Of a DNA stretch of 4,387 nt, positions 4,268-4,387 are shown piece by piece (the stretch's first letter is position 1; each line of letters opens with the position of its first letter). Made by a program: the position numbers and the translations under genes. Source of the stretch: a virus (lineage: Duplodnaviria; Heunggongvirae; Uroviricota; Caudoviricetes). The DNA lies in IMG/VR virus record IMGVR_UViG_2711768059_000006; one strand, 5' to 3'. Below the pieces are notes generated by a model. It was given only the letters and a program-made list of their open reading frames with translations, made no database searches and was not told the origin of the DNA.

Positions 4268-4387
4268 CCGGTCAATGTTGTCCGACTTGATGGTCCGGGT
4301 TCTCGGCGTGTCCTATTTCACTTCTTTACCGCTCACCTTCTCGGAACCTAATGCTTACAATCCCTCCTGCGGAGTCGGCTCCTGGCT
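4268..4387 (-). pseudogene. J: 5'-ward continuation of the J reading frame with two in-frame stop codons; J is probably disrupted here (or the sequence is erroneous)
   Basis: Minus-strand translation of 4387..4268 in the J frame gives [38 protein letters not shown], which aligns with lambda J ...EQEQTPPEGFESSGSETVLGTEVKYDTPITRTITSANIDR... as I recall it. The TAA at 4355-4357 (plus TTA) aligns to a Glu codon and the TAG at 4313-4315 (plus CTA) aligns to a Tyr codon. Confidence 0.5.

Follow-up and report, generated by a model that had tools for sequence, protein, structure and literature searches.

The window, by which we mean the whole stretch of DNA analysed here (4,387 nt), is the complete 4387-bp contig CXYE01000065.1 (range 1–4387) of the draft assembly GCA_001269025.1, and the locus as deposited (L093) is its exact reverse complement. 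Since the window is the complete contig, position 4387 is a contig end, and the patch of altered sequence that reaches it is the terminus of the contig. No mention of CXYE01 or GCA_001269025 was found in a literature search. The contents of the window are J, entering at codon 72, lom and the start of stf, and nothing else (Table 1). The exact Lom protein is widespread, being found in 503 blocks of the protein collection. Terminator-like hairpins with T-runs were detected on the minus strand directly after J (1165–1184) and after lom (488–509), and these coincide with annotated terminator sites in phages mEp460 and 434.

Table 1. Features of the 4,387-nt window
Feature	Position	Strand	Remarks
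J from codon 72	1202–4387	minus	codons 1–71 absent, the contig stops there
Error-laden terminal patch	4227–4387	minus	J codons 72–125; 28 substitutions and 0 indels relative to otherwise identical intact prophages
In-frame TAA	4355–4357	minus	J codon 82; GAA (Glu) in lambda and intact relatives
In-frame TAG	4313–4315	minus	J codon 96; TAT (Tyr) in lambda and intact relatives
TTG opening the mechanical 1021-codon ORF	4265–4267	minus	aberrant base CTG>TTG at 4267; no real start codon
Clean part of J (codons 126–1132 and stop)	1202–4225	minus	every base identical to three intact-J assemblies
lom (Ail/Lom outer membrane protein, 199 aa)	536–1135	minus	
stf (side tail fibre), N-terminal 157 codons	1–471	minus	exits the opposite contig end; 3917–4387 in L093

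The J product as called in the source assembly carries the Pfam domains FNIII-A_GpJ, Phage-tail_3, Ig_J, Ig_J_second, Phage_Tail_Tip and Ig_GpJ_C. As expected of a lambda-like tail tip protein J, homology to gpJ was found together with its set of Pfam domains and the J-lom-stf synteny, and within the lambda gpJ family the gene is an ordinary one. Both the J-lom-stf order, which the relatives of lambda also have, and the domain set are shared with lambda, and the gene product aligns with lambda gpJ (NP_040600.1) without gaps over codons 72–1132, with 92–100 identical residues per 100 in residues 172–971. In contrast, only 15–25 residues per 100 are identical to lambda gpJ in the last ~160 residues of this ungapped comparison. 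The divergent C-terminus covers residues ~970–1132 (window 1202–1690, minus strand), and its sequence points to a receptor-binding end that would differ from that of lambda. The same C-terminal end is common to phage 2H10 and many E. coli prophages.

Among the J relatives in the database (protein hits P0014, P0016, P0097, P0125 and P0132), some are fused to unrelated domains (portal, glutamine synthetase, terminase), and others, 1024 aa in length, carry the name 'tail tape measure protein'. These fused or misnamed relatives are likely to be mis-assemblies or mis-annotations in public records. An ORF of 674 codons lies antisense to J (1976–4000, plus strand). A stop codon interrupts it in lambda, phage 2H10 and the chromosomal relatives L084 and L089, so this ORF is no gene but a by-product of the codon composition of J.

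An earlier reading of the letters, hereafter the sequence-only reading, had described two in-frame nonsense codons on the minus strand in the N-proximal part of J, each aligned to a sense codon of lambda, Glu or Tyr, and one base away from it. Both points were confirmed. Minus-strand translation of 1202–4387 gave SQEPTPQEGL*ALGSEKVSGKEVK*DTP..., after which the J frame is open to its stop at 1202. Against lambda NC_001416, to which the window aligns gap-free from J codon 72, the TAA stands at Glu82 (GAA) and the TAG at Tyr96 (TAT). The former is produced by a sense-strand change of G to T at 4357, and the latter by a sense-strand change of T to G at 4313. Codon 96 is TAT or TAC in all of the 82 alleles compared (80 from IMG/VR, phage 2H10 and one E. 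coli chromosome). The two remaining frames of the segment that carries TAA and TAG are also closed, thereby ruling out a frameshift as the explanation.

The 1021-codon J ORF quoted in that reading has no natural start. The TTG that opens it is itself made by an aberrant base, so that the boundary of this ORF is without biological meaning. The gene caller of the source assembly used GTG at 4237 as the start of J, giving a product of 1011 aa, which is recorded on exactly one contig, CXYE01000065.1. Products from the starts at 4267, 4249, 4159, 4060 and 4051 gave no record, that from GTG 4237 alone being recorded. The J gene is thus mis-called in the deposited assembly as a 1011-aa protein from an internal GTG, and this is a consequence of the artefact described below.

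In nucleotide comparisons with relatives, the mismatches piled up in the terminal 161 nt. Phage 2H10 aligned to the window without gaps and with 160 mismatches; 24 of these lay in the 120 nt next to the J-proximal end, a stretch of that length elsewhere having about 4. The first 165 nt were 78–84% identical to each of the 82 alleles, and the next 435 nt 96–99%. In the first 161 nt, 22 bases matched no allele, whereas the next 439 nt contained no such private base, and both counts stayed the same when ten more chromosomal alleles were added (92 alleles in total). An E. coli chromosome reached through its Lom protein (L085) differed from the window at 36 positions, the terminal 161 nt accounting for 29 of them.

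The closest relatives were reached through the protein. A homologue search started from the 1021-aa ORF yielded J proteins by the thousand, ranked by bit score, without revealing a near-identical relative. Repaired J proteins were then built by joining natural residues 1–125 to residues 126–1132 of the window. One of them is exactly an existing intact J protein of E. coli of 1132 aa, P0136 (EFE8178125.1, EHP0937546.1 and HFO8519723.1), while the repaired proteins with two other natural N-termini were absent from the protein collection. P0136 is encoded in three independent E. coli assemblies, L095 (Logan SRR14715631), L096 (GCA_012455045.1; AASOEB010000006.1, range 2067–11465) and L097 (GCA_043597825.1). 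Each of them differs from the window by 28 mismatches, all within 4227–4387, and by none elsewhere (Fisher's exact p 6e-42), the sequence compared outside the patch being 4226 nt for L095 and L096 and 4176 nt for L097. The raised substitution density noticed in the sequence-only reading was therefore borne out, the closest relatives differing at 28 of the 161 nt in the patch and at none of 4226 nt outside it, although the limits given there (4268–4387) were too narrow and the patch is longer (4227–4387, 54 codons). The stf-side end of the contig showed 0 mismatches and is without aberrant bases.

The sequence of the patch was found nowhere else in the collections searched. Among 5,426 complete E. 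coli genomes, there was no full-length match to 4150–4387 above 89.8%, and the plasmid collection gave nothing closer than 90.5% to 4100–4387. Exact 26–30-mers spanning the stops were absent from the GTDB representative genomes, IMG/VR and the JGI metagenomes.

No indel accompanies the 28 substitutions, and transitions and transversions stand at 6:22, whereas third-codon-position transitions predominate in the rest of the gene when it is compared with 2H10. Swaps between A and C or between G and T account for 19 of the 28 changes (p 2e-4 against the expected one third). The changes are asymmetric as to strand. On the plus strand, which reads 5' to 3' outward to the contig end, 9 changes of G to T and 7 of A to C (16 altogether) were counted against 3 of the complementary types (p 0.004). 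In the comparison with L085, where the patch has 29 mismatches, the plus strand was changed at about 32% of G, 25% of A, 6% of C and 10% of T. The mismatches numbered 12, 6, 6 and 3 per successive 40 nt from the contig end (Mann-Whitney p 0.014). No excess of G was seen before the changed bases, the preceding base being G in 9, C in 8, A in 6 and T in 6 cases, which equals the background.

With respect to the coding sequence, the changes fall on codon positions 1, 2 and 3 in 5, 12 and 11 cases, altering 16 codons non-synonymously and 5 synonymously, which gives no indication of selection. Natural polymorphism among the 92 alleles over the same 161 nt affects 6, 2 and 31 columns at the respective positions. 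The protein segment 72–125 is near-invariant among natural alleles, and no stop codon was found in codons 72–125 of any of the 92. When the same numbers and types of substitution were placed at random in a simulation, a mean of 0.97 in-frame stops was obtained, and the probability of two or more was about 0.25. As about one stop is expected by chance from 28 substitutions, the two stops need no separate explanation.

We consider it very probable that the nonsense codons and the substitution cluster are an artefact of sequencing or assembly and no property of the prophage. Errors in Illumina reads cluster at the 3' ends, indels are rare among them, and a platform-typical spectrum of G>T and A>C has been described (Dohm et al. 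2008, PMC2532726). Of the Illumina errors, 99.5% are substitutions, and error rates are much higher in the low-quality 3' 'B-tails' (Minoche et al. 2011, PMC3334598). The window resembles such 3'-tail errors at contig ends in the following respects: the patch forms the physical end of CXYE01000065.1, its last 161 nt, at the terminus of a short repeat-bounded contig; its variants are found nowhere else and are missing from the otherwise identical independent sequences L095, L096 and L097; its changes are substitutions only, with the G>T and A>C spectrum specific to the outward strand; and their rate climbs toward the contig end (from 3 to 12 per 40 nt). Two differences were noted. The patch is longer and denser (161 nt, 17% errors) than a typical artefact of trimmed reads, and, unlike early Illumina data, in which G was reported to precede errors more often than other bases (Dohm et al. 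2008, PMC2532726), it has no such excess. An error of 17% over 161 nt is high even for a read tail, and needs either a read well over 161 nt or a permissive extension.

One short read, or very few, with a low-quality 3' tail would be the source of the aberrant bases, four-colour Illumina chemistry being the most likely. Such a tail may have been kept as an overhang by the assembler, or by a contig-extension step, where the assembly graph broke, and the break would probably lie in a stretch that several lambdoid prophages have in common. E. coli genomes carry multiple copies of the N-terminal region of J (median 2 places per genome, up to 7), which makes an assembly break there plausible. One of the relatives, L097 (DAZGFP010000238.1, 4763 nt), is itself a short contig nearly co-extensive with the window, with one end 213 nt upstream of J and the other at stf codon 140; repeats that break assemblies would thus seem to flank the J-lom-stf' block regularly. 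The source contig record carries the entry 'samples_with_this_contig 2', although the 1011-aa product is recorded on a single contig; the entry probably reflects a duplicate record, and an independent second sample with the contig would count against random read error.

The sequence-only reading had taken the stops, if real, as the mark of a defective or cryptic prophage, and had offered a sequencing or assembly error, or a recombination junction with a different J allele, as alternatives. The location at the terminus, the intact relatives and the error-like spectrum support the error, and of that interpretation this is the part that stands; neither the defective prophage nor the junction was upheld. 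That the patch is real, i.e. that J contains a locally hypermutated N-proximal segment with two nonsense codons and the prophage is unable to make its tail tip, is very unlikely. The stops are present in the deposited sequence, and a cause such as strand-specific mutagenesis of the oxidative-damage type or error-prone repair may be proposed, the chemistry of 8-oxoG also yielding the G>T and A>C classes. However, three assemblies differ from the window at 28 positions within 161 nt and at none of the other 4226, and we know of no in vivo process that gives 17% divergence in such a patch and none beside it. The limit of the patch coincides exactly with the last base of the contig, and the density peaks there. 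In-frame nonsense codons in an essential tail gene are indeed a likeness to the pseudogenes of cryptic or defective lambdoid prophages, but in genuine prophage pseudogenes the decay is dispersed through the gene and its neighbours and is kept in related isolates, whereas the changes of the window are all in the terminal 161 nt and common to no other sequence. Three other assemblies have this allele in intact form (1132 aa), and J, lom and the stf fragment are otherwise unchanged. A TAG nonsense codon in J also recalls the amber mutants of lambda J. The laboratory Jam alleles have a single engineered or selected nonsense codon in a gene that is otherwise wild-type, whereas the window has two different stops among 28 clustered substitutions at a contig end. 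That a true, isolate-specific hypermutation tract with the strand bias of 8-oxoG-like G>T and A>C changes met the contig end because the tract disrupted the assembly is still less likely; if true, the tract would show that mutagenesis confined to this place had inactivated the tail tip gene.

Other origins of the patch start from sequence that exists elsewhere. A chimera or collapsed consensus at the contig end, mixing reads of several J paralogues of the genome or of a contaminant in place of pure base-calling error, is highly improbable. In its favour, contigs typically break in repeats such as the multi-copy J N-terminal region, and another draft assembly gives the near co-extensive contig L097; however, a mixture is limited to the bases of existing alleles, yet 22 of the 28 are in none of the 92. 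The best full-length match in complete E. coli genomes stays at 89.8%, the 26–30-mers of the patch are absent from the three collections named above, and natural alleles differ mainly at third positions, whereas 17 of the 28 changes are at positions 1 and 2. That the patch marks a junction where a diverged J allele was recombined in, or that the stops are read through by suppression or recoding, is extremely improbable. Lambdoid tail genes are mosaic, and the C-terminal ~160 residues of this very J are unlike lambda, but no donor allele for the patch was present in any collection searched, and its transversion-dominated, mostly non-synonymous changes lie in a protein segment that is near-invariant in nature. 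With 16 non-synonymous against 5 synonymous codons and two stops, the segment does not look like a mosaic J allele, and the private bases, the lack of a match above 89.8% and the absent 26–30-mers together refute the junction. As to recoding, the two stops are of different kinds and 14 codons apart, neither is conserved in any of the 92 homologues, which are without a stop in these 54 codons, and no match to an Rfam family was found anywhere in the window. A target of a diversity-generating retroelement (DGR) was also considered and rejected: the changed bases on the plus strand are mostly G (14 of 28) with 7 A, so that the change is not adenine-specific, and no second copy of the patch that could act as template occurs in the window, whose genes are J, lom and the stf fragment alone.

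Sequencing or assembly error at the contig end thus remains the preferred explanation. The patch does not represent real biology, and its two stops, TAA and TAG, are by-products that tell nothing about the functional state of the prophage. The prophage allele beneath it is an ordinary one, found intact in other E. coli assemblies, and for this reason the patch has no bearing on phage biology. The main value of the finding is a caution on data quality for calls of pseudogenes and of prophage integrity on draft assemblies: where stops and 'hypermutated' patches fall within the last 100–200 bases of a short draft contig, neither a pseudogene nor a defective prophage should be scored on their account.
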